Both the position numbers and the translations under genes were made by a program. A DNA stretch of 64,000 bases. Source: Blasia pusilla. Its lineage: Eukaryota. Positions 8,573 through 61,549 of the stretch are shown here, one piece after another. The notes under the pieces were generated by a model, which did not search any database, was not told the DNA's origin, and was given only the letters and a program-made list of their open reading frames with translations. Each line of letters opens with the position of its first letter. Within the stretch, counting starts at the first letter, position 1. The stretch lies in assembly GCA_050084515.1 (NCBI GenBank), contig CM114271.1, forward strand, positions 1,488,001 to 1,552,000. Direction: 5' to 3'.

Positions 8573-8604
8573 CCCCTCAATCTCTCTCCTTTTTTTCTCT
8601 CCCA

Positions 8605-8629
8605 CTCTCTCTCTCTCTCTCTCTCTCTC
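8605..8629. repeat. (CT)n/(GA)n microsatellite in the probable ATAB2 5' UTR
   Basis: Uninterrupted CT dinucleotide run just upstream of the ATAB2 start codon. Confidence 0.85.
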
Positions 8630-9603
8630 GTCGTCCTCACAATCTTCAGGGACACTCCTCACTTCTGCGCAATCAAATCCTCTTCCTCCTTCCTCTCCAA
8701 CGCAATCCCCGTCTCCAAAGCTTTCACTGCATCGCTCAATCACTTCCGTTCTTCGCAGAGCACTCACTGCTGTACAGTATCCTTCACCAGAGGAGGAAGA
8801 AGATAGAATCACAGGCCGGGTGACGAGATCCAGGCCCGGCTCAACGCGGACCCAAAACTCGCAGCCAGCTCGGCCCGGTCTGATCTAGGAGCCTGTGATT
8901 GGTGCGATGAGGTAGAGCCGAGAAAGCGAGGCAACCGCTCCCGTTCGGGTTTTTATTTATATCCGCGTAAAATAAGAAATTTTTTTAATTAACTGAATTA
9001 TTTACTAGTAAGATGCCCGGAAAAAAAAATTTGTTTGAAGAGCTAGTGAGAAATTTGAGTGTTAGTGTATAGTCCGTGAAGGGATAGGACTAATGATGTC
9101 GTACACAAATTCAAAAAAAAATTTGGTTGTCCATAGCATGTGAAATATTTTCTTGTTGTCCAATTGCCACGTGTGAAACGAGAGGAGTTTGCAAATCAAG
9201 AATCCACTCTCCTATAATAATATAGACTAGTTATCATAGGATTGATTTTCATGGTGATACCGGAGAGATCACTACGTGTCCTTTGAACCCAGTATGTATG
9301 ACGCATGACATGGGCATTCGGCTAGCCTAACGGGCCGTTTAGGCTTTCGAGATCGTGGAGTGGAGTGGACCGTACATCATACGGTTCCCTCACGGGTCCT
9401 AACCAGTGTACATAATTCAAAGAGGATGGTGTTAAAAAACCTTCTCAAATGATAATTTTCCTTTCAATTCTTTTCGGGTGTTGACACGTGGAATATTTAA
9501 GAGAATAGTTAAGTAAGCGGGCTCAGGACTTAATGGATGTCTTTCCCCTCACCATAGAAAAAGTGGAGTGGAGCGGACTCTTAAATAGAGGGATTCATAG
9601 ATC

Positions 9604-23800: not shown

Positions 23801-24753
23801 TGCAACCCGTCGGTTTCCGTCTGGTTGCACGAGAGAGTCATGAACAGAGAGTGCAACATGTCGGACTCCGATGGGTTGTAACACTCTCGGGAGATTGTAA
23901 GGATGCCCAATCTTTCAGAGTTCGATGGGTTGCAAAAATTTCTTTGACTTGCAATCTCTTTGACAAAAAATGTATATTCTGCAACCCGTCGGAGTCCGAC
24001 GGGTTGCACCTCTGTCAACCCATTGGGGTCCAAAAGGTAACACATTGATGTCCTTTGACATGAAGTGATGTAATCTGTGGGAGTCTGAGGGGTTGCTGAA
24101 TGACTCTTATTCCTTGGATCCAACCTGTTGGACTCCCACGAATTGTAAAATGACTTCAATTCCGAGTCAGGTTTCTGGATGAAAATTGGCCATCGCAATC
24201 CGTTGGACTCCCACGGGTTGTAAAATGACTTCGATTTCGAGTCAGGTTTGTGGATGAAAACTGCCCATAGCAACCCGTCGGAGTCCGACGGGTTGCCCAA
24301 TGGCCCTGTTAAGTAGTAATTTGAAGCCTAAAAGCAAGCTGTCAGACTCCGAAAACTTGCCCTTGGGGGAAAATGCAACCTATCGGAGTCCAACAGGTTG
24401 CTTTCGACCAAAAGTTTCCAAGAAATAGGGTATAGTCCAACAACTCGTCAGACTCCGACGGGTTGCTTTAAGGCCTCGGATGATTTCTTACCCCTCATTG
24501 AGCAACTGGTCGGAGTCCGACGGGTTGCAGAAAAAATTAATCATGCAATCAATTTTCAACCCGTCCAAGTCCGACTGGTTGCAGTATCTTGGATTAATCC
24601 GGGTAACTTGCCTACCAAGCAACCCGTCGGACTCCGACAGGTTGCTGGACTTTACCCAAAACCTCAATGAGGATGGAGTCTAGAGAATCAAATCATTCAT
24701 GCCCATCTTCAATCTTTCCAATTATGCAACCCGTCTGATTCCGACGGGTTGAA
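23801..24753. repeat. Cluster 3 of the 29-bp palindrome (putative intron)
   Basis: About 13-14 copies, including a perfect one at 23980-24008. Confidence 0.92.
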
Positions 24754-26395
24754 GCAATCAAACATAAGGATCAAGAAACTTACGTATTCATTGCATGCAT
24801 TGCCATTTCCATCGTTTCCATGTGATGAGGAAATGGATGGAGCACGACTGACCTCAAGCAGAAATGGGCCTCCAATGAATTTGGGCGCTCCTCTGCAAAC
24901 TGCGTCCATGCCATGTTCTTGTGGTTCCCATCCCAGATGAAGAAGTAGAGGTTCCGCATCCAACTATATTGGGTTCCTTCAATAGCTCTTATGAACTCCT
25001 AGTCTCTCATCCTCGAGAATGTGGCCAAGCCTCCAAGTCTTCTTCCGTCACGAGAGCATGCGTTCCATGTTTATCGCAAGGCTGAACATAGAAGGGAGGG
25101 AAGTTTTCAACGTAGGATGTTGTCGCTACCGACTACTTCAGCTTTGCAATGTCCTCCTCCGACTGAATTTCGCGGACGTACTCCATTGTCCGCAGTCGAC
25201 AAAGTGGAATTCTTGGGGACTTTTGGCCGTCCATCATTGCCATCTTCTTAACAACCTGCCACAATGGCGATAAAGTAAATAAGCGGTTGTTACAATTTTT
25301 TGCCAATTTTTTGCATAATGAGATTTCACATAACCCGTATTCTTCTTACCCGATCAAAGATTGGGTCGGTGTCCAAGCCGGCCAACTGCTCTAGGACAGG
25401 AGCTGGCAAGTCCACGGGAAGCTCATCGATCCGATAAAGGTCGATTTCTTCCAACGGGCTCAATGACGATGACGACTCTTCTCCTGTTTCTTCGAAGATG
25501 TCCACCATCTCCACACATGCGGTCCTCATGACCTCGTCGTCTGTCATTTCAACTGCAATCGTTTCCTCGGTCATTTTTAAATTCATGGTGTCCCCAGACC
25601 TCATCGGAGACATTTCTTGCATCTCAACACTATCCGTTGGACAGGCAAGGCTTTCTTCAATGGCGATGGCTTTTTCCCTTTGAGCTTTCACCAACTCTGC
25701 TTTCGTGATGGAGGCGTCGAGACGCTTTTTCTCGGCTTCTTGTTAGCGACTCTTTCTTCAAGGCCTTTGATGCCTCAGCCTCCGCGTTTTGCTTTGCTAG
25801 CTCCTCCATAGCAAGCTTTGCCAGAACCTCGTGCATGTGCATTTCTGCTTCCCTTTCCCGCTCCTCTAATTCTTGTTGCCTTATCTCATTCGCCGAGCGA
25901 GGACCACGAGATGGAGCTGCAGGAGTCCTGATGGACTTGGGAGTGACGCTCCCTACCTTCGTTGCTTGTGTTTTCTCCCTCGTCATGGTGCATGTTGAGT
26001 CAGTCCTTCTTCCTCATCAATGTTATCTGCTCTTGTGCACGACAGACCCCTCAAAGCTTCGATGGAGTGCCTTAAACCAACTCTCCAAACGTTGTGTGGT
26101 GAAGCGCCCTCACCTTCCAACGGAGGGGCTTGCCTAAACCAAACTCTTGAAGCATCGTGTGCTGGAGCGTCATTACCTTCCAGCGAAGGGGCCAAAGTAA
26201 CCGACATGGTCAGCGGCCAAGGAAACGTTAACAACAAGGAGGAAGAGCTGCAATTGAAATCCCGGAATGAAGAAGGGAAATGAGCAAAATCTCAGCCTTT
26301 TCTACTTTTTGAGTCGTTGATTCGATGGTTCGTTTGTGGGAAGCGTTGCACCGATGGCGACGTCGGCCGCTACGGTGCTTTGCATGTGGGAAACG

Positions 26396-27182
26396 TGCAA
26401 CCCGTCGGCCTCGTCGGACATGCAACCCATCGGTCTCTGACGGGTTGCACGCTTCCCTCGTCTTGGGGTAACAAGGCGAGGTACCCGGGCAACCCGTCGC
26501 TCTCCGACGGGTTGCCTGCTTCCCTTGTCTTGGGGCAACAAGGCGAGGTCCCCAAGAAATCCATCAGTCTACGACGAATTGCACAGTTCCCACCATACTG
26601 CGAAACCGAGGCGCGGTCTCCGAGCAACCTGTCTGTCCCTCACGAGTTGGACCGTTCCCCCGAGAAGGGAAATCGAGGCAAGATCCTCGAGCAACACGTC
26701 GATCTCCAACGGATTGCATGGTTGCCTCGACAAGGAAAATTGCGGCGAGGTCCACTTGCAACCCGTCGGTCCCCGATGGGTTGCACGGTTCACTCGACAA
26801 GTGAAATCAAGGCGAGATCCCCGAGCAACCCGTCAAGGATCGACGGGTTGCACGGTTCCCTCCAAAAGGGAAAGCGAGGCGAGGTACCTTTTCAACCCGT
26901 CGTAGTCCGACGGGTTGCCGTAGGAAATCCATGCGAGGTCATGCGCATCCCGACTCCGACGGAATCAGACAGTTTGCACAAGCAGGGGGTACCGACGGAC
27001 AACCGCGTTCAACCCAAGGGACTCCGACGGGTTGCAAGTCGCACTGGGACTCTGACGAACAGGGGGACTCCGTGGCTTTGCAACCTGTTGGGTTCCGACG
27101 GGTTGCAACTTGTCCGAGTCCCAAAATTTGCAACTCGTCGGACTCCGACAGGTTGCGACTTGTCGGAATCCGACAGATTGAA
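26396..27182. repeat. Cluster 4 of the 29-bp palindrome, partly in a ~67-68-bp higher-order tandem array
   Basis: Copies at ~26422, 26490, 26558, 26625, 26691, 26758, 26825 and 26893, separated by related spacers containing AGGCGAGG(T); further copies extend to ~27180. Confidence 0.9.
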
Positions 27183-27615
27183 CCTTGTTCATGGCTAATT
27201 AACCTTTGGCAATCGGCAAACTTGCAACGAGATCAATCTCAGGGGAATCCAGAGCGTCACACAATCTCACCTACCAACCAACAACTTGTCAGTCGATTTC
27301 TGTCAAGAGAATAACAATCACTATTCACTATAAATTAAACATTTTATTTTTTATTTTATTTTCATTCTCCTCCTGGTGGAATTATTTGGGAATGGATAAT
27401 TATGTGAAACTCACCCGTGGCAATCATCTACGGGCCCTTCCTCAATCACAAATAATTCGACCGCAAGCTCGTGAGTCTTACATAGCAGTGGAGGAAAATT
27501 TCCTCTCATTGCGATTTCTTCTCCAAATTGGAACAACCTTTGTTTCTAAGGATGTTAGGGTAGACGGTACGGAGGACGTCGTAGGTGAGACAGTCTAGCC
27601 AATGATTGTAAAATA

Positions 27616-34049: not shown

Positions 34050-35251
34050 ATGGATGATGATTTTGAGTTAGATGCGTGCCTTTCTATAATGCTTGTGCTA
34101 TCTCAAATGATTTCCACTTCCACTCTTCATAGTCTCTTATGTTTACATTTGTCGAATATGACAAAGACTTCTTCATGTTCGAGGTTGGGTCTTTGGTATA
34201 TAAAACCAAGATCTATAGGGTTTACAACTCTCTTTATTGATGACAACATTGTGCGGAGAGATAATCCCTTGCGTTTCAAGGAGTTCTTTTGAATCTCAAT
34301 TGGGACATTTGATTTGATTTGTGATATATTGAGAGGTCGCTTGACTTCAAACCCTCCAACGACATTGCAACAATTATCGAATAGATTGTTAAGTGTTAAG
34401 AGACAACTAGCAATCACTCTGCGTCGTCTTGCCACAAGTGATCAATTATTGGGGATTGGAAAACTCTTTGGTCTTGGACGCTCCACTACCGCTAGATTTT
34501 TCCATAGAGTAATCGATGCTCTTGTGGAAGTGGCTCATGGAGTTGTGAGTTGGCCAACTCGAGCACAATTACAAAGAGTCAAAGAAAGCTTTGAAGCATA
34601 ATATGGATTCCTCAATTGTTGTGGTGCAATAGATGCCACTCATTTTCTCATTGACTTACCAACGAGTTCAAATGCCACATCATGGTATAGTCATAAAAGA
34701 GTAAATCTTACCCATGTGCCATGCAAGCTGTTGTGGATTCAGAGTTGCGATTCTTAGATGCATTTGCAGAATATCCACCTTGTATTCATAACACACGACT
34801 CCTTCAAAACTCTGAATTATACAAGAAAGTAATTCAAGGAGAAAGGTATTTGATTGGTCCTTCGGTTCCATTGAGATATAACAAGAGCACTCGAAAGTAT
34901 ATCATTGGTGATGCAGGATATCCGTTATTACCTTGGCTCATTGTCCCTTATCCAAGAGCAATTGGTCGAAAAGAGGAATGGAATTATCTCCATTCTTCCA
35001 TGCCCATGTATGTGGAGAGAGATTTTGGAGGATTGAAAGGAGCATGGCTCGTACTCAACCGACACATTTATCATCCAAACTTAGAGCGATTACCAAAGAT
35101 GATTGTTGCTTGTTGTATCTTGCACAATATCTTGATTGATAGACAAGATCATACACCTGATACTCTCTTTAGGACTGCAAGACCTCATCCACCTGGGTTT
35201 CAAAGTTTTGTACCTAGCAACATAGTCACACTTAATGGAAGAGCTAATTGA
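34050..35251 (+). pseudogene. PIF/Harbinger DDE transposase (HARBI1-like), with stops and a frameshift
   Basis: W...RS...FKEFF*IS..TFD.IC, QLAITLRRLAT, FGLGRST, GF.NCCGAIDATH, MQAVVD...F, IIGDAGYPLLPWLIVPY, VER.FG.LKG.W, ACCILHN. Confidence 0.92.
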
Positions 35252-38694: not shown

Positions 38695-40179
38695 CTCTCA
38701 ATCAATTAGCAAATGCTCTATATATAGTCTCATTGTGGTTCAACTTCCATAGTTGAATCAGTGTTGAAAACACCCCACAACGAGTGAATGGGTAGTGCAA
38801 TGCAAATTGTGAACGAAGGAACCTCTACAATAGTTTATTCTACATGTGCTTTGCCTCTCGTCCTAGCGACTGCTGCCCAAGATCCACGCACCTGCATGCT
38901 CTAATAGCAAGTGCAAGTAGACTTTGTATCATGGTGTGGATCGACATACACCGCACCGCAATGGGTGGAATTGAAGGAGATTGTAAGTGAATGATGAAAC
39001 TAGGGGCATCCTTGAAGATCATAGAGCACATCAATTATGCATGATGGATGTTTCCTCTATAGGAAGAAGCGTTGGTGAGCTTCATGGGTGTAACAAACGT
39101 AGCTCTATAGAAACCTTGGCACTGGCGCAAACACCAACACGCGGGATGAGAAATTTGTGCATGCTAGCAGCACTTTGAGAACTCTTCTGCAAGTATTGCA
39201 TAAGTAATTAAGTACGATTAAATACGTACGATGGATGTTTCCTCGTCGCAAGAACGAGGAAGAAGCATTGGCAAGGATGATTGCCTGTCGCAAGAACCTC
39301 ACGAAGGTATCATGCAAGAGCTCACAACATCGCGAAACTTAGACAACGACTACAATCCTCATTTCATCCACGATTGCCTTGACTTCAAAGATTAGTATGA
39401 TTTGAGCGAGATCATAGTAATCATGATTCTTTGAAAAATCCGTCTTGAACACCAAAGGAAAAATTTGGAGTCCTCCAATCTTTCATGCAAAATGAAAAAT
39501 GCAAGCCTACTATCCTACAAATCTGACAAGCGTAAATAAAGAAAGGACGTCGTAGAAACATACAAGCACGGAAAACAATTTCATATGTAGCAATGAGGAC
39601 TCCGGTTGGATTTGTTGGACTGCAACATCCCCGTTTGTCAATGAGTGATGATGTCGTGACGGAAGAGATACAAAAGAAAATTCCTTTCCTCGATCCCCAT
39701 TGACACGTTGAAATGGACACTCTAACTCATGACATGCAAGGTGCGTGAGAAAAGAAAAATGACCACTCAAATGCTTGACATAGGAGACTTGTATTGAAAT
39801 TCGGCAAGCGTGGAGCTTCAAACTTGAAATGTGCATACCAAACATGGATCAAGAAAAATACAAGTGCATAGAAAGATTAAATTTTCCCTCTAAAAAATTT
39901 GAAATTTCCCATCGCAAGCATAATGTTTCACCTTTTGCGCAAGTTGAGCCGAATGCCCTTTGTCAACGCAGATGGAAAAGTAACCAAGTATAGCATGTTC
40001 CGTGAGAAACTGAAACTGGCTATAGCATGTGTGCGATCCAAGGATTTTCATTGGAGATACCACGCCGTGATTTTTATGGCGCGGACAGACCAAGGACGAT
40101 GTTTCGTCCGTGAATTTATGATCGTCAATCTGGATGATCAGGGACCCCGCGATCCAAAAATTGGTCCATGGGGATTGGC

Positions 40180-40795
40180 CCTAAAGACTACCGTGGTTAC
40201 CAAAAAAGCATAGCAATAGAGGGTGTGTTCAATTGACCGTGGTATAGTTAAGGATCGTAGTCCCTACTGTTGGTACTACTCCTCAACCCTAAAGGCCACT
40301 GTGGTTCTTGAGAAAGCGGAGCAACGGAGGGTGTGTTCATTTGACCGTGGTACAATTAAGGATCTCAATCCCTCCTGCTGCTACTACTCCTCAACCCTAA
40401 AGGCCATCGTGGTTACCGAGAGACCGAGCAACAGAGCGTGTGTTCATTTGACCGTGGTACAATTAAGGATCGTAGTCCATGCTGCTACTTCTACTCCTCA
40501 ACCCTAAAGGTCACTGTGGTTCCCGAGAGAGCGGAGCAACAGAGCGTGCGTTCATTTGACCATGATACAATTAAGGATCGCATTCCCTGCTGCTACTACT
40601 ACTCCTCAACCCTAAAGACCACCGTAGTTCTGGAGAGAGCGGAGCAATGGTGTGTGTGTACTTTTGTTTGACCATGGTACAATTAAGGATCGCAATCCCT
40701 CATGCTACTTGCTAGTGCTACTACTACTTACTACTACTCCTCAACTGTCAAGGCTACCGAGGTTGTGGAGAGAGTGTGGTATAGTTAAGGATCAC
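40180..40795. repeat. Tandem satellite, ~108-bp unit, about 5.5 copies
   Basis: Unit anchors GCAA at ~40213, 40321, 40428, 40536 and 40644. Units contain TTTGACCRTGGTACAATTAAGGATC and CTACTCCTCAACCCTAAAG, with variants. Confidence 0.95.
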
Positions 40796-42750: not shown

Positions 42751-43671
42751 TCAAAATCTGTCGCTCACACCACACTTCATTGCACTTGTTGCTTATAGCT
42801 TGCAAGTCATTCTATTGTTTGCATGTCTAAAAGTCATAATTTTGTCAGAAGTACTAGTTCTCTCAGATTTCTATTGAAGTTCAAGAGCAATCTATCTTGA
42901 TCCTACATCCTCTCTAACGTTGTAGATTAATTCCTTTACTCAATGTCCACTTGCATATGCACTCGGTTCATTGAATCGGTTCATAATGAATGTGCCTTGC
43001 ATATTGCACACAGTGTGACATGAAATGAGCAAGAGGAAAATCAATAAAGTTAGTAACCACAACTCAAAATCAACAAGACTAAACCGATGAAAATCAATAT
43101 AATTACAATCAATAACCAAATAGCCAAGGGCGCTTAGCATAGAAGGGGGGTCTACGTTTAGCAAATATCCATAACATTTTGCATTAGAGACTTCCAAACT
43201 CAGTTGAAAGAGAGAAGACCATGAAGATAATAGATAAATCAACATTGGAGACTACTAATATGATTGAAAGAGAGAATAATGGGCATAATATATTCATCCG
43301 TCTATTTTATTACACTAACACTTAAGCACAAAAACATGTGCTTTGCCCCTTGAAAGAGAGGACGGTGAGTGCGTGTATGGGAATAAATCTCACCAAGAAT
43401 TGGACATTAAGTATCAAAGAATAAGGCATCGTTCTCCATTGCTTGAAGATGGTGACTCTTTGTCGTGCGCATACATATCGCTACACAACATACATCTCTG
43501 GTCACATCTACACCACACAACACCAATCTTCCCCACACACGGGTTGATCCACACATGTACAAAAATCAACTCATATATATACATGGAGATCACACAACTG
43601 CCCCTCTAGCTGGCAGTTGGATCCCCCAACTCCAGATAGAAAAACATATCTCTCTGACATGACCTACAATC

Positions 43672-43830
43672 CTATACACATCTCGGACACATCCATCGTC
43701 CCGTGGGAACCACATCAAGAGGGGGGGGTCATACATGACATATGCCACCCTCGAGAACAACCATCACATACCAACATGATGGTTGCACCCCTCGCAGATC
43801 CGCACAACATACACCTCAAGCCTGCAAGTA
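43672..43830 (-). pseudogene. PHD finger at the C-terminus of the retrotransposon integrase
   Basis: CMLCGSARGATIMLVCDGCSRGWHMSCMTPP, then after a frameshift LDVVPTGRWMCPRC: a complete C4HC3 pattern with the W.C..C end. Confidence 0.9.
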
Positions 43831-44016
43831 CCACTGCCAAGCTCGGATCCACTATCCTGTCTACGTTCGAAAGATGACATGGCGCACAATTACGCACATG
43901 ATCCTTCCAAACCATACCATCCCGTCCCTCCAACATGAGGACTCCGGTCGGTAATACCTCGCGCACATGTAGGATCGTGTACCTGCAGTAACATCTAGCG
44001 TCGTGGGTGCCGCCTG

Positions 44017-46680
44017 CTATAAATACACATAATCTCCAGGATGAAACCTCCTAATTTGTGGATGATAACCTCCTCCACGAATGGTCTCGTACCTCAATGT
44101 ATCTCTATGCTGAGCAATAGCTAAGTTCTCAAAGGCCATAGGCATAACTCTACGAAAAACCTCCGCCCTCTGAGAACATGCTTGTACCCACACATCTGGA
44201 TCATCAAGATCTAACACCTTTGCCATGTCATGTCGAATTGCTGCAGGTAAATCTGGCTCTCTCCCAAAGAGCAAAAAGTATGGTGAAAATGACGCCAAGG
44301 ATGCTTGTGGACTAAAGCGATAATCCATAGCCAACCATGGCAACTGTAGGTCCCACTCCCTCAATTGTCCCCGCTGCAAGCCATACTTGCGCAATCCTCT
44401 CTTCACCATCTGTACCACTCTCTCGGCCAACCCATCTGTCTCAGGATGATCTCTAGACGTGGTGCGATGATCTATCAACGACTCATCACACAAGGCATGA
44501 AACTCTCCCCTGAACTCGGTACCCTGGTCAGTCAACACCTCCGCCGGTGCACCAAAGGGACTAAGCACACAATCTAGAAACGCATAAGTTGTTCCCTTGC
44601 TTGCCTTGTTCGGTAGTGCCACCAACTCTATCCACTTGGAGAAATGCTCCACCATGACCAACACGTACCTATGATGACGCCCTGTCAATGACAAAGGTCC
44701 CGCAAAGTCTAAACTCCACGGATAACCTAAACCCATAATCGGAAAAGGATGTAATTGCAGAGTGGAAGCATTGAAGGATGCTCGCACTATGTCATATACC
44801 ATACATCTGGCCACAAATTGTTGTACCCCAGTATGCATGCCGCGCCACCAATATTGAATCTGGAGTAAGTTGTAAGTATGCTTCATTCCAAAATGTCCCA
44901 ACTCCTCATGGGCATGTCGCACTACACGTGCTCGGTGGGAAGGATGAGGTACTACTCGTATCCTACCATCTCCCCATACCCACAAAATGTGAGTCCCCTC
45001 CCACCTGAACCTCCTGGCTCTCTCTAGGATCCGATCCCGCTCCTTAGCACTCAGTGTGGTGGCTATGACGCCAATGAGCAAGAACTCCACAACCTCCACA
45101 TCGACATGGATATCACGACCACCTGTCGCCTCCTCACTGACCTCCAGATCCAAAGACTCATCATCCAATCCCCCCACTAAAGTCATCACCTGTGGTTGAC
45201 CTGCCATAATCAACCAACAAAGATAGGCAAATGCATGCCAACCGAGCACCATCTCCTCATCACTCTCTCCTTGCCATCGAGCTCCTGTGTCGTCTCTCTG
45301 ACTCAAACATGGGTTACGACTCAACCCATCTGCATCTTGGTTCAACGGACCTGGCCTATGAACCACCTCAAACTCATACTCATGTAGTAATACAACCCAC
45401 CTGGCAAGCTTTCCCGTAAGCTTGTTGGACTCCATCAACCATCTCAACGGCTGATGATCAGTGATAAGTGTGAAAGGGTTGTCGAATAAATAGCACCTGA
45501 AATGTGCCACGGCCCACACTGGAGCCAAACACTCTCTCTCGTAGGAGCTGTACTTTGCCTCTGCAATGTTGTTTGATCGGCTCGCATATGCCATAACAAA
45601 CTCCCTCTCCTCGTCATCCCTCTGAGTAAGCATTGCTCCTAGATCCAACATGCTCCAATCCGTATGTAATTGGAATGGGCGACCCCTAACTGGTCTCTGT
45701 AAAATGGGTGAGGACTTCAACATGTCCTTGAGCTCCTGAAATGCTTGCTCCTGATCATCTCCCCACAACCAAACATGATCAAGTCTCGTCAACAAGGTCA
45801 AAGACTTTACGATCGTACTAAAACCCTTGACATACCGTTGATAGAAGTTCGCCAGTCCAAGAAATGCTCGGAGTCAACTCACATTTGTAGGGAGTGGAAT
45901 CTGCGCAATAGCCTCTACCTTTGTCCGTTGAACGCCTAACCCACTCGGGTATATGGTGTGTCCCAAATACTCAATCTGCTCTTGAAAGAATCTGCACTTG
46001 CCTGCATATAACTTCAGTCCATGTAACTGCAATCGTCGAAACACCTCCTCCAAGTGTCGCTCATGCTCCTCAACCGTGGAACTCAAGATAAGAATATCAT
46101 CTATCTAACATCGTACAAAATCCAAGGCAGCCATAATCCTATCCATCACTCTCTGAAACTCTGCACGCGCGTTCTTCAACCCAAATGGTAAGAACCGTCA
46201 TTGATACAAGCAATCTCTCCCGAACCGATCTATCCCCCAGAATATTGTCTTCTCCCTGTCCTCCAACCTGATAGGAAGTTGATGATAGCCAGGACGAAGA
46301 TCTAACGTATTGAAGATCTTTGCATGCCCTACCGCATCAAAGATTTCCTCAAGAGTAGGCATGGCGTACCGATCTGATCTTGTCTGTCGGTTGATAGGAC
46401 GGTAATCTCCACACATATGCCTATCCGTCCAATTTCCATACATATCCTTCTTCGTTGGCATGACTGTGGCAGATGCATACTCCCCATATGATAACTCCAC
46501 AAGTCCTGCCTCCAACAAGTCCTGACTCCTTCTGTGAATCAAGGCTCGCTCCATATCAGAATACCTGTAGGGTCGACGAAAGATCGGTGTATCACTAGCC
46601 AAATCAATCTGTATCCCGGGACCCTTCAACGTATCCAAGTCTCTCATATAAAAAGCAAAACAATTGACATGCCCTCTCAA
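44017..46680 (-). pseudogene. Gypsy pol: reverse transcriptase, RNase H and integrase
   Basis: RT: DYRPIN, LDLRPGYHQ, LPFGLKNA, (*)IDD. RNase H: LHTDWS...ITDHQPL. Integrase: HEELGH, SLDFAGP, TDQG, LAER. Frameshifted, with stops. Confidence 0.95.
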
Positions 46681-47034
46681 AAACCTATGGACTCACCGTC
46701 ACTCTCCTCCTATCAACTTGAGATCTATCACAGGCTCCCAAGTCTCCATCGTGACCTCACTCGGAGAGGACGCAACATCCGGCTTTGGTTGCTATGTAAT
46801 CCTAGCCACTTCCGCAACAGCCACTCCACTCTGACCTCCTACACCATGCTCCACATCCAAAAAATGAACATGTGCTACTCTGGTCGCCTTCGCACTCTCT
46901 GCTCGAATGACGTCCCAGGAAGTCCATGGATGCCTATTTCTTCTCATCTCGCCCCCAGCCAATGCTTGTACAGACCCTGTAGGCAATGGTCCAACTCATG
47001 GACGTGACGGCATGGATGACACTCACATCCATCT

Positions 47035-47990
47035 CTACTCAGCCATACCTAGGCTGACTATCCATTTGAAACAGTTGAGGTCCATCGCCTGCCCCAACAC
47101 TTGTCTCCGAGATGCCTCAGTCATCCTTGGCACCGCCGTAGTACCGGTACCGAACCCCATGGCGTGCTCGCGCTCATCTGCTATAGGCTCATCCAATGCT
47201 CCGGTCACCTCACGAAAGGCATGGGATGCTGGGAAACTCACCAACGTAGGTTAGGCTGCCCTCAACTCCCCCACCCTATTGGCCATGGCCAACGGTGGTC
47301 TATCATCCCATGTCACCATCTGAGATCGACGCCCTAAGCCCAAACTAGCATCCACTGTGAGATGTGGTGCTCTCTGGACTCCATTGTATGCTCGACTCAG
47401 TACCTTTGATGGTATCAGGTTTGTCCACCATAGTCATGGACGATGGGCACATGATCCAACTCTCGCTGTATCTAGCAACACAGCAGGTCCCAACCAAGAC
47501 CTCACCTGATGCACACTCGTCATCACACGTGCACGAGTGTCTCCCAACAATGGCATGTTCTCCAAAATGTACGTTTGAGAACATGTATGACTCTCCTGCA
47601 AGTGTCGTACTACTTGCAGCATCTCCCAAAACATCCCTGACCTCAGATCCTACAATCCACATCCTCGGCCAGCTGATGAATGACCCTGACATGGCCATCT
47701 AGCAATCACCAAATGAATGGTCCAACTCTATCCAGATCTTGTGCCCCCACCAAAGAGATGTCGGCGGGTAGTGTATGTTGATATCCCCGTATTGTAGCTA
47801 TCGGCAACAACTCTGGATACCTGTGGACCAATCTCGCCACATGACGTAAAGATACTTGCCGTGCGGTCTCATCTCTCTCCACATAAAGGTAATGATGCAC
47901 CCGTATACCCGCCTGCAATACTACAGCCAATCCGTTGCTAATCCCTCCGAAGAGATCTAACACCCTAACACCCTCCTCTAGGCACTGCCA
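47035..47990 (-). pseudogene. C5-cytosine DNA methyltransferase domain inside the retrotransposon polyprotein
   Basis: Motif I VLDLFGGI; II YVE; III DI; IV LVIARWPCQG (PCQ at ~47686-47694, after a frameshift); V D.RSGMF; VI YILENM; VIII AHRP*LWWTN; IX EREHAMGF; X RRQVLGQAMD. All in canonical order. Confidence 0.9.
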
Positions 47991-49108
47991 CACAACGGGT
48001 GTGGTATCCAATGGGGTCAACGTCTCCACTCCAAGAGCCTGATTGTCAAGTGACTCTCGCTGCTCCGGGATAAAAGCATGACTCCACGCCTGCCTCACGA
48101 GGTCGTCGACACTCCTTTGTAGCTCTCGAGTCGTATCCCACAATGGTGAAGAAGTCTCGCCAACATGGGAAGAGACACCCGCCATGGCCTGTCTCTCCGT
48201 GGGACTATCCGCTACTAGGACATCCTCCACCTGTGCGTTCCCCTCCAACAACTCTCCTGTCTAGCTAACACTACATGTGAAAGCTGTCAATGTGGTCACA
48301 GACTTGCCTCATGATCGACCACCTTGTCTCGCCAACTGCACGGGTAACTGACTCATCCGTGTGTCACATGACCGCCACCTTGGCCGATACGCAACGGTCT
48401 CCTCCTAGAAGTCAAGGATGAATCCTAGGGGATATAACACTATATTCCCCACCAACAAATCGTACAACTGAGTTGGTGTCGTAATCGCACGTGTGCGCAC
48501 CATAGCATTATCCATCGCATGCTCTGGCTGGACTCTGACAACTATCTCATGTCGAGTCATATACTGTGTGGGTGACACGCCCCTAATCGAGGTATGTATC
48601 TGGAAGGGACAAGGCTCAATGTCGGCCTTCCGTAACCCCGACGCTAAACACGCGCCTTCCCTAACATCAAGGGCTCCGCTCTCGAATCAAGTAGGACGCG
48701 CTGCGGGTGGTATACCGTCCCCATGGGACTAATCAAGCGAAATACTCCAACTCAATTATCCAATAACACTACTCCAGGTGTCACCACTACTCGCTCAATG
48801 GCCGGTCGAGCTGGCATATCTACCAACTTTGCCGCCGCCGCATGCCATGACTCTATGGGAAACATCCCGAGCACCGGCTCTAAGGGCAAGTCCACCACCT
48901 CGTCAACTATCCCTAAACAAGAAGCAGTCACCTATCCACGCTCACACAATGTGGCGGCCAGTCAGAACACCTCACCTGGTCCAACTCCCAACATTGCCAA
49001 CTCTATGGCGGAAAATAGTGGAGTCTGACTCACTCTAATGGCCACCTCCAACACTATGTCCGACACTGACTCCACTCGAGTTGGCATAGGAGTTGTCACT
49101 CCAACTCC

Positions 49109-50831
49109 TCATGATGTCGACGTACCTGCCTGAGCTATAGGCACCGTTGGTCGTCGAGGCACCATCGATGGTGTGTGTAGTGCCTCTAACAATGTGAATG
49201 ACTGTGGAACCCTGGCCTGCCGCCCATCGGTCCTCTTTGGTGGGTCAATCTCAACTTCACCTCTCAATGGCTCGGTGCCTCTCGTAGCACCTCGAGTCAC
49301 CACTGCAGCTGCCTCAACCTGGGCTGCACTACACATAAACCCCATACTAGCGAGATCCTCACCCGGGTCAGGGTAAGAGGTAGAAGTTGGAGTCACACTA
49401 GCTGCTCGTAGGTCCGTGCCTTCCCTAAGCTCCATCATCGTCATGGCAGCAATCCTCTGCTCCATCTGATCGATACATGAGAGAAGTGCCGACTCTCGTG
49501 CTCCTACTCCATCTCCTCTGGCTGGTGGTGGTCCTCTACCACCACGTCCAGGAAGAACTCCCCGACCTCCTCCAAGACGACCGCCTGGAGGCCCTCGGCC
49601 TACCTCTAGACATGCCTCTCGACGAAGTTCAAGACACCTATCCCTAGTGTGACCATATGTGTAGCAATAGTCACACCGGTACTGTGTTGGGGCCATCCTG
49701 TGTGGCTTCTGAGCAATCAGAGGCGCTCGTGGTCCTCTCCCATGTTCTGTGTAGTCTCTCTGCCGATGGGCCCCTCCACACGTCCAACAAGACAACATTG
49801 GTCCTTGCTAGGCAACATATGTAAATACGGGTCGTTGCCTCATAGGCTCACGGTACCCACCCTGCTCTCTGGGCACACTAGCCCGCTCCGCTGGTACTGG
49901 TGCTTGCTGTGGCACCTGTGGGGTCACTGTCACTTGTGGACCCGTCGACTCTCGAGAAAATCCAGCCGTCACTACCTACTCCTAACTCATGTTGAGCTCA
50001 TTACACTCAGACAACTCAAAGACCACCTTCAATGTGGGCTTCGCTGTGTGAGTCAGCATCGCATCTCGGACTCTCCACTGTAGTTCGCGGTCCAGAACCC
50101 CGTACCAATACTGGACTGATTGCGCCTCAGTCACTCCATACGTAGCAATGATCAGCCTCCTTATGCGCGTGAATGCCTCTCTCAGACTCTTCACCGATCA
50201 TTGCTAAAAATCCTATATACTCTTCAGCTTGTTGGTGTGTACACTCTAGTAGCTCTTCCCCAAATGTCGGAAAAAACTCCATTGTGGGGCTGAAGCTGAG
50301 TGGCCCTCTACCACCAGAGGTCTCTGCCACATCGCCTGTCTCACTGCCCTCCTCTCCATCTAGTCTCCGAGCTGATGGTGTGGGTCTCTCTCCTCTCACA
50401 ATCCCATCATATGCCTCGCGACCACTAGTGGACACATACCCTGGAGCCCAATACATCCTCCAGGCATCCATCTCTACTTAATATAGTGATCAAAACGCCA
50501 TGTAATCATCCATCGGAGGACCCTCCGAGTGTTGGAACAACCCCTTCCATGCCATGAAAGGGTTGAACCGTGTCGGGGTCCGTATCTCTTGGAAGTCGCA
50601 CCACGTGTCAAACTCCTGGATAAAATCATCTAAGTCGATGGTACCCACTGCACCCGAGAAACGACGCATGTCCCGATGGCCCACGTCGTCCATCTTCTGC
50701 CAAGTGATACTACCTCCTTCTACGATATCGTCACCAGACCCAGTGTCTAGTGATGATGATCCAACCACGGATGGATGTCGAGGTAGCTCCTCACTCGTAA
50801 CTCCTCGGTATCTCACTCCACTCCGTGTCAC
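49109..50831 (-). pseudogene. Gypsy gag with two zinc-knuckle motifs
   Basis: RRFSG...LDDFIQEFDTWC capsid-like segment; CWTCGGAHRQRDY and CDYCYTYGHTRDRC; RG-rich tract. Confidence 0.75.
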
Positions 50832-52889
50832 TCCACTACTAGTGCTTGCACTACCCCGTTCTTCCGAACCCTGGAAGAACGCCGTGATGACAAACCCTGT
50901 CTCACCCGCTCAAGCACTCAAACTCACCGAGAGTCACCCACACTCCTCACTAGCTTACTTAAGCTAACGTCAATCCTGTGATGACACACTCGGCCTCACG
51001 CACACTCAACACTCGGGCTCACCATGAGCCTCCCAGCTAACTCACCTAACCTAGCGACACTCTCGTGTCATACATGCGATCCCTACACGGCAACCGCCGT
51101 ATAGCCACCAACATGCTACACATGAAAAGAGTCTACACTTGTCATCATCACTATACCCACCTAGCACCAGCTACTACCCGATACCCGACACTCTCAATCA
51201 CACACGACAAGTACGGGAAAAGGGACTCGAATGGGTAACCTGATTACGCCCTCCAACCTACGGCACCGTCAACACTCACTCCTCCATGTGACACGATAAT
51301 GTCAGCAACACAACACTCTTCTCGACCAACAGGTCGATCCTCCCGTCAACAGATATGGACAACCCGTTGGCATCATGCGTACTAACACTCCATCGTCAAC
51401 TCTCCCAAATCCCTATCACGCTCGCAAACATCATGTCACGCAAACCTCTTCGCCTATCCCCACACGCGGCCTGTAACCTGACTCAACGCCCTCTGGACTC
51501 AACCATGTCAGCCCATCTACCACACTGTCCGTAGTGCTACCACTGCGCGGGGGGCATCGTAGCCCGTCCGCGCGCTTAGTAACCTCCGGCCGCCTCCGCG
51601 ACCTAAACCTCATATGTACCATATGAGGTACAACCATATGAGAAATATGGCTTAGGAAAGCCATCTTCCTATCTTATTTAGGGTTGGGAAGAACCAAAAG
51701 GCTCTTCCCATAAAAATAGCCCTACCCTTGGTAACCTGCGTGCACAGGTTACCAAAGCCGGATGACCTGGTCAACAAGTCACTCGGTTGTGAAAGACCTC
51801 AACATGAAAGTTGTAGAAACAACGTTCTTGACACAATGGACCTATCCTCAACCTCATCGGACACAATGGGACAAAGCTACACTCAAGATAGTCCGTTGGC
51901 TCCTACGCCCTATCCACGATAGATCTCGGCCTATCGGCTACCCAGATGTGACATCTTTCTCCTAGGAAATATTCACGTCACTATATTTTGTTTTCTCCCA
52001 CTCCCACTCCCACCAATGCAACAAATCAATAAATAACTACATCTTCCCAAAGGTTTTTTTTTTAAGAAAAAGAACAATTGAGAGATTAGCCCTACGTAGT
52101 ATCAAGTTTCATTTCTTTAAGACTCAACGACCGTCTAGCCAACTACATCTCAAGTAGCTTTGAATTTTCCAATGTGGGAAGGATCCAGCTGAAAACACTT
52201 ATGGTGAGATCTTGGGAAATTTGCATAGTACATATAGAACCTACTTTCAAAATTTGCAATAGCAACGCGATTAACATACTCATACAAGGCACGAGTGTTC
52301 ATATCCAATGCGTGTGTATGATGGGATACCACTCATACTATGTTCCACAACATCTCATAAGTTGAGAGTCATAAATAACAACTATAAAACCTTGTAATGT
52401 TGATAATCCCAATATATAAAGTAAAAAGAAAAATTATTTATAGTCTAGGGATAGAGAATGTCAAGGCCCTGATGTCGCCATATGCAAGAGGCTCTAATAT
52501 CCACAAACTTTTCAAATGTTGATGGGAAGTTTATCCCTTGCATGCTTTAGACAAGATCCCATCTCACTATTTGATATTTTTAAAACATATAATCCTTTTT
52601 AATACTTATGTTTTGGTATAAGCTAATGTTTACAATCCCCAAAAAAATCCATACTATGAAGGGAGTGCAAATTTTTTTATGCACGAATGATTTTTTGACC
52701 CACACACATGGTAGTGGGGATGGCAAAAAGATGTTTCAATAACATGTGCAAAAATACAACAACAAAAATTTGGGCAACGCAATTATTTGCCATATATAAA
52801 GCAAGGGATGTACACGAGTGTTTTTTAACTCCCCTTTTCCATTTCTTCACTCATAAGACTTGTCATCCCCATCTTTCCATTTTGAAAAA

Positions 52890-53800: not shown

Positions 53801-54899
53801 CGCATCTTTGTCTTTGCTTCCACTATTATAATTTGGCCTTCTTCTCAATCATGGAAGTAACTCTACTTAGATATGAAGCTCACATAGGTTTCTTAAACCT
53901 TCTTATCCAAGGATTAAGGAGACTATAACTATTCCATAAGTTTCATGGGGGGGGGGGGATTATATTCACTAGCAAAAGATTGTATCAACAACTTTGGATG
54001 TAACAATAGGTGTATTATTTTAAGAATGAGTGAAAATTTTCCATCTATACACCAATTATAAACTAGAGTTCTTCAAGGATAAGGGATATGTCCCATATGT
54101 ACATGGGATAGATAGCAAAACATTTGGACTTGCTCAAGTGACATGTATTAACAACATGTATGCATCAATGCTCGATCTTCTTGCTCTTTGCATCATGTAG
54201 ATGTATGTTACAAGTAGATAGAGATAGATGATTATCTTGAGTTAGAAGAACCTAACCACAAACTACGAGGGCGATAGGAGATATTTTGTTAGTTACTAAT
54301 CTCCATATTTAGATTCCATGGTTGAATGTGTTGGGCGGTACTTTTTGTTTGATTATTGACATCGATGTATGTTGTATAGCGATATATGTATGCATACAAA
54401 AAAAATCATATCTTTTATACCATAATTAAGAGAACCCAGACAAAACTTTGGGGCACATGAGAGTTTAAGACTATTATGTCAAGGATGATTTGTTAATATG
54501 CTCTCAAGCGGGGTGTAGGCACCCACTATCTTCGACCTCTATACTTCAAGGGAAACTTGCAAATACAACTTAATTTGATGAACTTACTATATCATGTAAG
54601 AAAAAGTTGACTTCTTATTTTGGGAAATGACTCTTGATTCACTGTTATAGGTTTAGGATCAAGGAGTTGACATGTGTGTAGAGATTTTGGGGAGAGAGAG
54701 AGGATATATCTCAAGAAAAGAGAGTTTAGGAGCTCATTCTATTTTTCTTTAACCTCATTTCCATGAGGCTGCAGACCTATGGTGCTTCTTGCCTTGTAAG
54801 TAATCCCATACTCTCACCAATGATGTATGCTATGTAGGGATCCGTAAGTGTAGGAAAATCTTCATGTGTTGCTTCCTTTTCGCTTCTCCAACTCTGGCT

Positions 54900-55735
54900 T
54901 AACGTGTGCCGACAAAGGAATCACCTCTCTAACTCCTTGTGACGTCAAGTTACTCATTCTCCATGTGCACTATTGGTCGTTTAGGCACCGTCGATGGTGT
55001 GTGAAATACCTTTGACAATGTAAATAATATGGAACCCTAGCATGTCGCCCATCAATCCCCTTCAGTAGGTCAATCTCAACCCCACCCCATTTGTGGCTCG
55101 ATCAATCTCGTAGCATCCTAAGTCACCATCGCAACAACCTCTACTTGAGCCGCACTACATATAAAACCTATGCAATGGAAATCCTCTTTTGAATCCTTAT
55201 AAGATGTGGAGGAGCCACTTGAAGTAGATGCTCTTGGGTTCGGCTCTATCCTTGATTGTGTCATCTTTCGAATCGAAAATGATAAACAAGCACACACACA
55301 TGTGTCCCCAAGGGATGCTCATCGAAGCAACTTGCTTGCCTACCTGCATTCAATAAATGCCCCTACCCCTTGAGATCTTTCTCATACAAAATTGAAGTAA
55401 AAATGGCTCACACAGTTAACTCCACTCTCGTATCTATATTGAGCCATATCCTCTGCTTGAGGGAATAGTAGAGGATACTAGCACCCTAGTTCCTACCACA
55501 CACAAGCAAGAGAGAGCCTCCAAAGGCTCAACATGAGAAAAATGGCTTGAGAAATCCATCTTTCCCTATCTTGTAGCCCTAGAAAAAGCCTTCCCCAAAA
55601 AATAGCCATCTTCAATAGTAACTTGTATGCACAAGTTATCGAATGATCTTTGACTTGGTCAACAAGTCATATAGCTTAAAAAGAGCAAAAGAGGGGGATT
55701 GTCAAAACGGATGATGTCGACACAATGGACTTGTC
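54900..55735 (-). mobile_element. Second, more decayed fragment of the DNMT-Gypsy family
   Basis: 54982-55175 aligns with ~49155-49350 (GGCACC.TCGATGGTGTGTG...GGTCAATCTCAAC...GCACTACA.ATAAA). 55533-55735 aligns with 51638-51848 (ATGGCTT...CCATCTT...TGGTCAACAAGTCA...GACACAATGGAC). Confidence 0.75.
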
Positions 55736-59423: not shown

Positions 59424-59600
59424 TATCGTGCGTATACACATCGTTACACAACATACATCGTTGTTACCGAACATACATACATACAAACATGCACGATCCC
59501 ATGCCAACTCATGGCATCCAAACATCGAGACGAGAGGTTCCAAAATATCTGTAATAAATCAAGCAGATCTCTCCATCAACAAGGTCTCATAAATGTGCAT

Positions 59601-59639
<39 letters not shown>

Positions 59640-60087
59640 CAAATCAAACCCACTCTCCTAATGAGAGGCTTGGGTTTCACACACAAGGCAATGAGGACCA
59701 TAGCTCTACTGCCACATGCCAAGAGGTTCATCAAAGAGGGAATGAGCTTTCAAGCTCTCTCTCTCTCTTGGAGGTATACCCCCCTTCCCTCTCCCAAGCT
59801 CTCTCCACAATAACCTATGCTCGCACATCACCTCCTTGGCTTTTGATCTGCTATAGCGGGCTAAGGGTCACTTGCCAAAGTGGAAAATCAACTATATTCA
59901 AAGTGGAAACTAACTTGAAATAGCAAGTTTCTATATACGGCTCCAAATGAGCTGAAAAAAAATGGAAAATTGCTCTCTCAGGTTATATGTGGCTTCAACA
60001 GGTCATCTAGAACTTGTTGAGGTTTTCCTTCAATATCCCCGAAGTCGCTATACTAGATCTCGTGGATCTATCCTAACAAACGTGACA
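59424..60087. mobile_element. Solo-LTR-like repeat (family A), containing a (CT)n run
   Basis: TATCGTGCG...ACGTGACA, with both ends homologous to 2730-3005; flanked by AAAA on both sides. Confidence 0.6.
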
Positions 60088-61549
60088 AAAACTCAATCTA
60101 TCCTTGCAGATTATCCTTTGTCCAACAACATATTAAGATCACGCATGAAATGTAACACTCCTCTCAAGCCAACTACTCACAATTAGTATACTCATGAATA
60201 TTTGATCCATATTGTAACCTCCAAATACATATGCTAACAAAATAAAATTTATTGCTTCATTAAGAGATTGAGAAGTCCTTGAATGTACACATAACTCATG
60301 CTAGCTATGGTCAAGTAATTCCAATTGTATCTCTCACCAAGCGCCACTCGGATAAGATGCTTATTCTCCTCTCTTTCTTGCATTATACTACTCTTCCTAA
60401 TCTCTCAAGTATGCTTTTGCCAAGGTCTTATTCGTCCTATTCTACCTAAGCAGATCCTTCAATCTTACAACTATCTAAATTGTTGGTCTTGAGCATACTC
60501 ACCTCTATGATCCCTACCCATCTGGAACTTGGTGCAAGATTCTAACTACATATGTCTCCTTCTATAACTATACATAACTCTTGTCTCTGTGGAAAGTCCT
60601 CTTGCATAATCATTGTCAAAGGTCCTTGCTTTTCATAAACTATGAAATCCTTGTTGGTTGTCCTCACAAAGATTGCACCAAGTCCCCTTCTTTGTTGCGT
60701 GTCCTCGCCCTTCATAAGGCATGTTCAAAGTCTTTGTACTCGTAGTCCTTACTCCTCACAATGTCTTTGCAAAGACCCAAAACTATCTTTGTTTTAACTT
60801 GTTTTCATGAGGTCCTCAGCTTTGAATACCAATGTTGTAGAGGTCGTAAGTGCCCTTCGTAATAGTCTTCGCCAAAATTTCCTCTTCTATTCTTCAAGAG
60901 GACTATAATCACAAGTCCTCTTCTATCATTCAAAACCCTTTCTACAACTTAGATTCCTACCATTTAGCTATACATGCTAACTAGCTTTAACTCCCACAAA
61001 TTTTTTTGGTTACAATTCTCCAAATCTAAGCATCAAACACATCCAGTAAACATACAACAAAGCAAGAGAAACAAACTTCTATCAAGAAGCTGATCCAATA
61101 TCATCCACTTATAAAGTGAATATTTTGGCGAAGATCAAGATTTTTGGAAGTGTCAATTTTGTAGAATATTCATATAATTAATGTACTTTTAAACATTTAG
61201 GGGATGATTATGAGTAGAAACACTGTATGGCACCAACATCTTCGATCAAAGTGGGAGTATGTGAGTTAATATGTGTAACAGAATCCTTATCGTGGACTTC
61301 GAGATGATTTCTACACATAGGGGAATCATCACACATTTCAAAATGAAAACTAAATACGTAGTCATATGTGATAGCTTTGAGAAAAAAAAAGTGACGAAAT
61401 CATTGAAACATGTTAAAAATGCTGGAGATACAAAATGGCCTAGTCCGTTCGTACACTCACAAAAGAGCTTCGATAGAACCTAAACATGGAGATAACTCGA
61501 CATACGAGAATGCACTATTGTTGCGGCTCTTGACTATTGGACTACTTGG

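Follow-up and report, generated by a model that had tools for sequence, protein, structure and literature searches.

We analyzed a stretch of 64,000 nucleotides from contig CM114271.1 of Blasia pusilla (GCA_050084515.1, positions 1,488,001 to 1,552,000 of the forward strand), referred to below as the window, in which a retrotransposon occupies positions 43461-51953 of the minus strand. This 8,493-bp copy is very probably a dead member of a Ty3/Gypsy-type family of the green lineage that carries a DNMT3-class domain and a PHD finger, resides in a liverwort host and is of the same kind as the Gypsy-DNMT3 elements of Klebsormidium nitens. The coding region runs from gag (with a CCHC zinc knuckle) through protease (PR), DNMT, reverse transcriptase (RT), RNase H (RH) and integrase (IN) to the PHD finger. 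Beyond the usual gag, PR, RT, RNase H and DDE integrase, the element carries two chromatin modules, the DNMT3-class domain in the PR-RT interval and the PHD finger 3' of the integrase. The original prediction had described a Gypsy-type gag-pol with a C5 cytosine methyltransferase between PR and RT, broken by stops and frameshifts. Collinear tblastn alignments and the domain order bear out this description, and both end coordinates proved exact.

Reading the termini directly, we found that the element starts with TGTCAC at 51953 and ends with CGCACGACA at 43461 (in longer form ...GATATGTATGCGCACGACA). The tetranucleotide AAGA lies on both flanks, upstream at 51954-51957 and downstream at 43457-43460, as expected of a 4-bp target-site duplication. 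The bases that follow the downstream AAGA (GTCACCATCT) resemble the 5' start of the element. Between the ends, a minus-strand chain of reading-frame pieces is collinear with Marchantia polymorpha proteins from gag to integrase. For instance, residues 12-1261 of P0004 align to 50666-46843 and residues 696-1189 of P0009 align to 46740-44983 (tblastn). Methyltransferase motif I lies in one frame; a second frame (47712 to 44017) holds motif IV and all that follows it as far as the integrase, RT and RNase H included.

The 5' terminal (A-type) region and leader are non-coding and span 50709-51953, upstream of the gag start as aligned to residue 12 of P0004. The gag region (49109-50708; P0004 residues 12-674) contains the CCHC zinc knuckle at 49675-49634 and is interrupted by stops and by one frameshift near 50290. 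The aspartic protease (48405-48760) was recognized by its motif, by the P0004 sequence and by an Asp_protease_2 match in the relative P0048; its active site reads LLDSRA, compared with LLDSGA in relatives. The methyltransferase domain, with motifs I to X in the normal order, occupies 47038-48044 and was identified by motifs, homology, profile and fold. An in-frame TAG followed by CAA CCA (46786-46794), in the type I leaky-stop context UAG CARYYA, stands at the site where the gag-PR-DNMT open reading frame (ORF) ends in relatives. The RT (45874-46740; tblastn and RVT_1) is in the same frame as the C-terminal part of the DNMT domain, and its RVT_1 matches have E-values of 3.3e-12 (45874-46104) and 0.053 (46198-46692). 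RNase H and the integrase, with its H2C2 zinc finger and DDE core, share an uninterrupted 618-codon frame at 44017-45873 (Pfam RT_RNaseH 1.7e-31, Integrase_H2C2 1.2e-13, rve 2.6e-13). The C-terminal PHD finger (C4HC3) lies at 43669-43813 (PF00628, 3.2e-6, 27.5 bits against a cut-off of 24) and has a homologue in the Scenedesmus protein P0060. The RVT_1, rve and PHD profiles that the original prediction had named thus all match the window. A 3' terminal B-type repeat (43461-43600) closes the element; its end, ...TGTTGTGTAGCGATATGTATGCGCACGACA, is conserved with the related loci L004, L005 and L008, and no A2-B2 block follows it.

The order PR-RT-RNase H-DDE integrase, together with the gag CCHC knuckle, is that of Ty3/Gypsy elements. 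Because rve and Integrase_H2C2 were detected, the element does not have the tyrosine recombinase that characterizes DIRS elements. Neither the integrase and PHD ORFs nor the scanned relatives gave a chromodomain match in Pfam; a PHD finger stands in its place. Rfam gave no match within the window.

This copy is a fossil and matters only as a marker. Its coding region holds 29 in-frame stops, of which one is probably the native TAG and 28 are disabling, and at least five frameshifts (near 50290, 48640, 47712 and 44030, and in a C8 run near 43722). As many as 27 of the 29 stops are TAG or TGA, and 16 stand in place of an Arg, Gln or Trp found in relatives, in keeping with C-to-T and G-to-A transitions. 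The observed/expected ratio is 0.68 for CpG and 1.50 for TpG. The pattern of stops in the window and in decayed related loci is what deamination of methylated cytosines would give. The methyltransferase domain has a frameshift near 47700-47715 and in-frame stops at 47652, 47436 and 47253. Its motifs also differ from those of relatives (AGW to ARW, ENV to ENM, GSRAHRPR to GSCAHRP-stop), about nine residues are deleted before motif IX, and the methyltransferase of this copy cannot work. Elsewhere, the protease reads DSR where relatives have DSG, and the RT contains five in-frame stops (46701, 46695, 46200, 46107 and 45876), the one at 46107 replacing the Tyr before IDD. The PHD finger is split by the 1-nt shift in the C8 run and is separated from the integrase by the frameshift near 44030.

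The methyltransferase domain and its relatives

All motifs listed in the original prediction were recovered on the minus strand and in order: the protease LLDSRA at 48694-48677, followed by DLFGGI (47957-47940), PCQG (47694-47683), ENM (47562-47554), AHRP (47448-47437), EREHAMGF (47175-47152) and LGQAMD (47097-47080). C5-methyltransferase motifs I, IV (PC), VI (ENV), VIII (RxR), IX and X are present in this order, with ENV read as ENM and the second Arg of RxR as a stop. We searched with a single-frame reading of 47712-47038 (P0001; motifs IV-X, with X at its three stops). Among 1073 candidates, P0001 matched 37 longer proteins at E ≤ 1e-3. The best matches were a JGI protein (5e-88, 64% identity) and a Calypogeia fissa protein (4e-86, 66%). 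Many Marchantia polymorpha proteins matched from 1e-82 downward, with 54-63% identity where the whole query was covered, and Sphagnum proteins were 44-47% identical. PF00145 is carried by the best Calypogeia and Marchantia matches. Intact relatives at 59-66% identity score 35-46 bits with PF00145 and also carry precomputed PF00145 annotations. An exhaustive HMMER scan of cluster representatives with P0001 gave 776 matches at E ≤ 1e-3 and 380 at E ≤ 1e-10, many of them proteins of 1000-3000 residues matched in their middle.

A single-sequence phmmer search of the PDB with P0001 returned only M.HhaI, at an E-value of about 1, and a family profile was therefore needed; the ESM Atlas gave only generic PF00145 clusters. 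With a profile of 20 family members, the best PDB sequences were DNMT3A (1.2e-25), DNMT3C (1.5e-23) and DNMT3B (3.5e-22), followed by plant DRM (8e-13 to 1.7e-10), M.HaeIII and M.HhaI (about 1e-8) and DNMT2 (1.7e-5). The 57 sequences at E ≤ 1 include no chain named DNMT1 or chromomethylase (CMT). An AlphaFold model of the family member P0029 (predicted local distance difference test score 77, predicted template modelling score 0.76) was searched with Foldseek, and the best matches were again DNMT3B, DNMT3A and DNMT3C (about 2e-16, target TM 0.72-0.79). In both rankings, DNMT3 appears as the nearest class, ahead of DNMT1, CMT, DNMT2 and the bacterial enzymes.

Like DNMT3A, DNMT3B and DNMT3C, the domain has motifs I to X in order, with motif VIII reading AHRxRxWWTN here and AHRARYFWGN in the DNMT3A chain. 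Unlike these enzymes, it has PCQ rather than PCN at the catalytic loop, is only about 21-22% identical in the structural alignment, and has neither PWWP nor ADD on the same polypeptide, the only reader being the PHD finger at the far end of pol. The plant DRM enzymes are also DNMT3-related and were the second-best group in the PDB search. Motifs I-VI of the family (profile positions 83-210), however, align to the C-terminal end of DRM (residues 228-349 of 357), which fits the rearranged motif order of DRM; the order here is unrearranged.

To place the domain within its family, we collected relatives. A scan of metagenome contigs matched 418 stretches, 289 of which encode a relative, and 80 were kept as related loci (numbered L001 onward). 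The domain order (gag-PR-)DNMT-RT-RH-INT-PHD was the same in all 11 related loci examined. The single protein P0048 contains, from N- to C-terminus, Pfam matches to CCHC, protease, DNA_methylase, RVT_1, RNase H and integrase, and proteins from Marchantia, Calypogeia and Closterium have the DNMT domain at the same position. A FastTree phylogeny of the DNMT domain (178 sequences, 233 columns) groups the window copy with Calypogeia, Marchantia and metagenomic sequences (supports 0.71, 0.92 and 0.97), inside a clade of 66 leaves (support 0.993) that includes the charophyte Closterium. Every member of this clade with a known architecture has the DNMT domain before the RT. In a tree of RT-RH (63 sequences), all 11 elements with the DNMT domain before the RT, the window copy included, form one clade with support 1.0, and Closterium again falls within it. 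As the DNMT and RT trees agree, the two domains share a history.

A second architecture, RT-RH-DNMT-INT-PHD, is represented by 'pol' proteins of Scenedesmus sp. PABB004, by Haematococcus and by 49 metagenomic proteins. For Scenedesmus, both the integrase tail and the PHD finger can be aligned closely to their counterparts in the window copy. In two sets of ten cluster representatives, those named belong to Scenedesmus sp. PABB004 and Calypogeia fissa. Judging from these matches, the family is found in liverworts, Sphagnum, Closterium and chlorophytes, as well as in metagenomic sequence that seems to derive from mosses. That a PHD finger follows the integrase, apparently throughout the family, is a new point.

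The only clear host gene seen in the window is the first exon of a Tab2/ATAB2-like chloroplast RNA-binding protein (7787-8884, minus strand; Pfam 1.4e-21). Counterparts were compared in Marchantia polymorpha (92% identity), two Riccia species (89% and 88%), Calypogeia (83%) and Physcomitrium (74%). The vascular-plant proteins listed are all below 83% (for instance, 78% for Cryptomeria). By these identities, the host belongs to the complex thalloid liverworts and is not M. polymorpha itself. The named relatives of the element, a minority of the total, include no vascular plant. The original prediction had implied a flowering plant as host, and this was mistaken. Its proposal that the lineage persisted into this plant stands in the sense that it reached land plants, namely bryophytes. 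The surprise of a flowering-plant Gypsy element with a DNMT domain falls away because the host is a liverwort.

In order to assess selection on the domain, we computed the ratio of nonsynonymous to synonymous divergence (dN/dS) among the related loci with an uninterrupted DNMT domain of at least 300 residues, using pairs with a usable dS; dS was not computable for the rest. There are 10 such loci among the 80, and nine of them keep PCQ, ENV and HRxR. Between diverged pairs, dN/dS was 0.13 for L003-L004 (dS 0.26), 0.09 for L003-L008 (dS 1.58), 0.11 for L004-L008 (dS 1.46), 0.175 for L002-L005 (dS 1.73) and 0.157 for L002-L006 (dS 1.84). Seven more pairs gave 0.155-0.243 at dS above 2, where dS is unreliable. 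With dN/dS of 0.09-0.18 between diverged pairs, the DNMT domain has been under purifying selection in active lineages. Many decayed copies (within L009-L080) give one gap-free alignment over the whole DNMT domain and yet contain 1-11 in-frame stops.

Terminal repeats and the stop codon after the methyltransferase

Six of the 40 related loci of at least 9 kb contain repeats about 280-310 nt long that are 84-94% identical and lie 8.1-9.6 kb from each other. Two of them (L031 and L049) have another repeat pair, B1/B2 (185 and 164 nt, 94% identity), on either side of the 3' copy A2, and the layout is A1-coding-B1-A2-B2. These moss-type relatives have split direct repeats rather than a simple pair of long terminal repeats (LTRs). 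The ends of the relatives, TGTCA...ACGACA, are the same as those of the window element, and TG...CA ends with a short target-site duplication are found in both. Of five repeat-bounded loci, three have perfect 4-bp target duplications (GGTC, CCAA and AACC), one matches at three of the four bases and one has none. Inspection by eye, no formal search having been made, showed no tRNA-type primer-binding site following the A repeat, either in relatives or in the window.

The window copy looks like A1-coding-B. Its A2-B2 block was probably lost through recombination between B1 and B2, which is the simplest account and would keep the target-site duplication. In a further locus, L069 (13469 nt), the first and last 122 nt are 99% identical, which may reflect overlapping ends in the assembly of this metagenome contig or an element in circular or tandem form.

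The liverwort-like relatives share a stop codon just after the methyltransferase. In L004, a 1359-codon ORF (gag-PR-DNMT) ends at a TAG and is followed in the same frame by a 931-codon ORF (RT-RH-IN-PHD). L003 and L008 stop at the homologous place, where three metagenomic proteins (P0315, P0316 and P0319) also end; the DNMT domain of L008 is 76-77% identical to those of L003 and L004, with dS near 1.5. In all 10 loci of one clade (L005, L006, L007, L009, L010, L014, L015, L016, L018 and L026), the first stop lies 94 codons past motif X. The Marchantia proteins P0004 and P0008 and the Calypogeia protein P0003 end after the DNMT domain, and the TAG of the window (46794-46792) is within one codon of the end of P0004.

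Directly after the stop, the window and 13 of 14 loci have the codon CAA or CAG; L001 has TAG TAG. Four cases fit CARYYA exactly: the window (TAG CAA CCA), L003 and L004 (TAG CAG TTA) and L008 (TAG CAA TCA). The ten-locus clade reads CAA CCC, with the last base off the consensus, after TAG in five loci and after TAA in the other five. UAG CARYYA is the type I leaky-stop consensus, as stated in the available part of PMC5382211. The conserved UAG and CAR context suggests, at the level of sequence, programmed readthrough between Gag-PR-DNMT and RT-RH-IN-PHD. We also considered a stop just before the DNMT domain as a feature of the moss-type clade and rejected it: in L031 it is a Trp-to-stop change that is absent from most sister copies.

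Affinities, function and alternative explanations

The Gypsy-DNMT3 kind of element is already published, as KnitGypsy-Dnmt3 of K. nitens (de Mendoza et al. 2018, PMC5890265). According to the figure legends of that paper, the K. nitens element combines a DIRS-type 'A-coding region-B-A...' repeat structure with Gypsy domains, and Ka/Ks of its DNMT is given as below 0.2 in the part of the text available. In the excerpts available, the preprint 10.64898/2026.05.21.726589 cites 'streptophytes (Gypsy-DNMT3)', and PMC12344493 speaks of DNMT3 embedded in retrotransposons 'in streptophytes and dinoflagellates'. We found no report of such an element in liverworts or mosses in the literature searched, a scope that excludes supplements and subscription journals.

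Compared with KnitGypsy-Dnmt3 by its published description rather than by sequence, the family has in common the Gypsy pol domains, a non-rearranged DNMT3-type domain within the coding region, and DIRS-like repeats combined with a non-DIRS integrase, a combination present in L031 and L049, absent from the window copy and not seen in L004 or L008. That purifying selection acts on the DNMT domain is also common to both (dN/dS 0.09-0.18 here, Ka/Ks below 0.2 there in the text available). The likeness asserted in the original prediction therefore holds as far as that description goes. Unlike the K. nitens element, the present one has a land-plant (liverwort) host, a PHD finger C-terminal to the integrase (the main text of PMC5890265 does not use the word 'PHD') and, in liverwort-like clades, a UAG-CARYYA stop after the DNMT domain. 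What is new here is the range across green plants, the constant PHD finger and the leaky-stop layout, not the kind of element itself.

Other comparisons place the features of the family individually. It resembles DIRS, Ngaro and PAT-like elements in the A-coding-B-A-B split direct repeats of L031 and L049. It differs from them in having a DDE (rve) integrase with an H2C2 finger instead of a tyrosine recombinase, TG...CA ends and 4-bp target duplications. As in chromoviruses, a chromatin-reader module is fused to the C-terminus of the integrase, but this reader is a PHD finger, with no chromodomain match. Gammaretroviruses express gag-UAG-pol through a leaky stop. In contrast to that arrangement, the boundary here follows PR and DNMT instead of gag. 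An in-frame UAG between upstream and downstream polyprotein parts is also found in the tobamovirus type I UAG-CARYYA context, as described in the available part of PMC5382211.

A broader proposal, which we hold to be less likely than not, is that Gypsy-DNMT3 is no peculiarity of Klebsormidium: it may be an ancient, Viridiplantae-wide lineage (chlorophytes, Closterium, liverworts and mosses) that combines a DNMT3 writer with a PHD reader and DIRS-like split repeats with a DDE integrase, and that in liverworts places the methyltransferase ahead of a UAG-CARYYA leaky stop. In our reading of the element itself, the main translation product would be Gag-PR-DNMT, and readthrough of the UAG would add RT-RH-IN-PHD. 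A stop after the DNMT domain would in this way put the methyltransferase in the abundant Gag-PR product. The enzyme would act within the life cycle of the element itself, after reverse transcription, most likely de novo on new cDNA or on a fresh insertion, and the PHD finger may read histone H3 tails and steer integration or methylation. Methylation of the cDNA or new insertion has been argued for pol-borne DNMT3 in the Discussion of de Mendoza et al. (PMC5890265). We consider it probable, though well short of assured, that the methyltransferase methylates DNA of the element's own copies.

Three alternatives have to be weighed against this account. The methyltransferase segment might be a host DNMT3 gene or pseudogene lying beside or inside an ordinary Gypsy element and private to this locus. 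Two observations speak for this: a frameshift near 47712 puts the segment in another frame than the protease, and none of its separate ORF pieces matches Pfam. We nevertheless regard it as very improbable. The segment holds the same position in 11 of 11 related loci, with no family member seen to lack it, and in the Marchantia, Calypogeia and Closterium proteins. The uninterrupted 1359-codon ORF of L004 spans gag, PR and DNMT, and the tree of the DNMT domain is congruent with that of the RT. The segment is not enclosed by repeats or duplications, and the single target-site duplication surrounds the entire element. Of the observations named in the original prediction as telling against it, neither relatives without a DNMT domain nor a DNMT domain with its own target-site duplication was thus seen. 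A different possibility is that the domain is retained for something other than methylating element DNA: it could methylate RNA, serve as a DNA-binding or structural module, or slow transposition to the benefit of the host. Such options are raised in the Discussion of PMC5890265, where the SymbioLINE DNMT is reported not to have methylated DNA in yeast, and the conserved stop, by which the domain would come to lie in the abundant Gag-PR product and not with RT and IN, would suit a role associated with particles or RNA. A non-DNA or non-catalytic role is nevertheless unlikely in our judgment, given that PCQ, ENV and HRxR are kept in nine of the 10 uninterrupted domains, that DNMT3 enzymes, which act on DNA and were matched as DNA complexes, rank first by both sequence and fold, and that DNMT2, a tRNA enzyme, has a score some 20 orders of magnitude poorer.

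The remaining alternative concerns history. The bryophyte and green-algal elements might have gained DNMT3 independently of those of Klebsormidium, in which case the likeness would be convergent. Recurrent, independent capture of DNMT by retrotransposons is the published view (PMC5890265, Discussion; likewise the available part of preprint 10.64898/2026.05.21.726589), no K. nitens protein is among the named matches, and the domain occupies two positions, before the RT in the streptophyte type and after RNase H in the chlorophyte type. On the other hand, the DNMT domains of the two architectures can be aligned with each other (E-values down to 1e-130), both architectures have the C-terminal PHD finger, and both trees place the charophyte Closterium within the DNMT-before-RT clade. 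The unusual combination of A-coding-B-A-B repeats with a DDE integrase also matches the figure legend on the K. nitens element. We give independent gain rather a small chance, slightly below that of a non-DNA role.

Several observations weigh against our reading of the element as a member of the Gypsy-DNMT3 kind with a methyltransferase that is under selection and followed by a putative leaky stop. Pfam found no match in five separate DNMT ORF fragments of the window, and P0001 falls just below the cut-off for PF00145 (E 1.4e-4, 21.9 bits against 22). Where Pfam is weak on these pieces, the homology searches settle that the domain is a methyltransferase. Its DNMT3 class follows from the PDB ranking and the fold, not from a tree with reference DNMT1, DNMT3, DRM and bacterial enzymes. 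Kinship with the K. nitens elements stands on their description and not on direct sequence comparison, and no Klebsormidium sequence is among the named matches of any search. As to selection, 70 of the 80 related loci have no uninterrupted DNMT reading, and two very young pairs gave high dN/dS (0.91 for L005-L006 at dS 0.058; 0.35 for L031-L051 at dS 0.048), as expected for neutral decay after insertion.

The ends of the window copy add to these points. We found no direct repeat or LTR pair in it, using a repeat search at two sensitivities and blastn at word sizes 9 and 7; local alignments scored 25 and 26, compared with shuffle means of 24.6 and 25.9. The closer relatives L004 and L008 have no B repeat in their last 1.1-1.5 kb, and the split-repeat structure attributed to the window copy is taken from relatives. 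The 3' AAGA could be a vestige of a truncated A2 instead of a target duplication, because the bases after it (GTCACCATCT) resemble the 5' start of the element (TGTCACATCT). Finally, the moss-type clade has no stop after the methyltransferase; in L031, DNMT and RT lie in one ORF.

Why an element would carry such a domain is a question of some interest. Cytosine methylation is the host's main weapon against transposons, which makes a paradox of a transposon with a de novo methyltransferase of its own. The published streptophyte case is a single alga; the presence of this kind of element in a liverwort and in Sphagnum moves the question into tractable land plants such as Marchantia. If the proposal of an ancient Gypsy-DNMT3 lineage is right and some liverwort copies are active, element-encoded de novo methylation could shape bryophyte methylomes, and Marchantia would be a tractable system for asking why a transposon methylates DNA.

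Other repeats and fragments in the window

A second, shorter fragment of the same family lies in the same orientation at 54967-55186 and 55533-55669. It is 75% identical to 49141-49360 (the end of gag) and 70% identical to 51638-51781 (the 5' leader), with most of gag deleted in between. The homology between the two copies in the 5' region starts near 51850. A short repeat is present in three copies (2730-3006, 59426-60088 and, in reverse, 54266-54797), each of which starts with the 35-nt B-end motif of the element's 3' terminus (97%, 91% and 84% identical to 43462-43496). Beyond this motif, the three copies have more sequence in common, with no homology to coding regions; possible explanations are terminal remnants and non-autonomous relatives of the element.

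The window also contains an unrelated Gypsy-like element on the plus strand (16085-18647), with a Retrotrans_gag-like region (16085-16711), an RT (17753-18647) that is 25-30% identical to the RT of the DNMT family, and no methyltransferase domain. A fragment of a PIF/Harbinger-type DDE nuclease lies at 34697-35251 on the plus strand (DDE_Tnp_4 4e-18, Plant_tran 2e-7). A tandem array with a period of about 108 nt spans 40179-40774 and has at least five units of 72-88% identity. Long open frames of reiterated short peptide units (…NPSxSDGL…) occur on both strands at 23734-24327 and 26284-27314; the stretch 26284-27198 has no Pfam match, and these frames are probably a degenerate tandem repeat rather than a gene.

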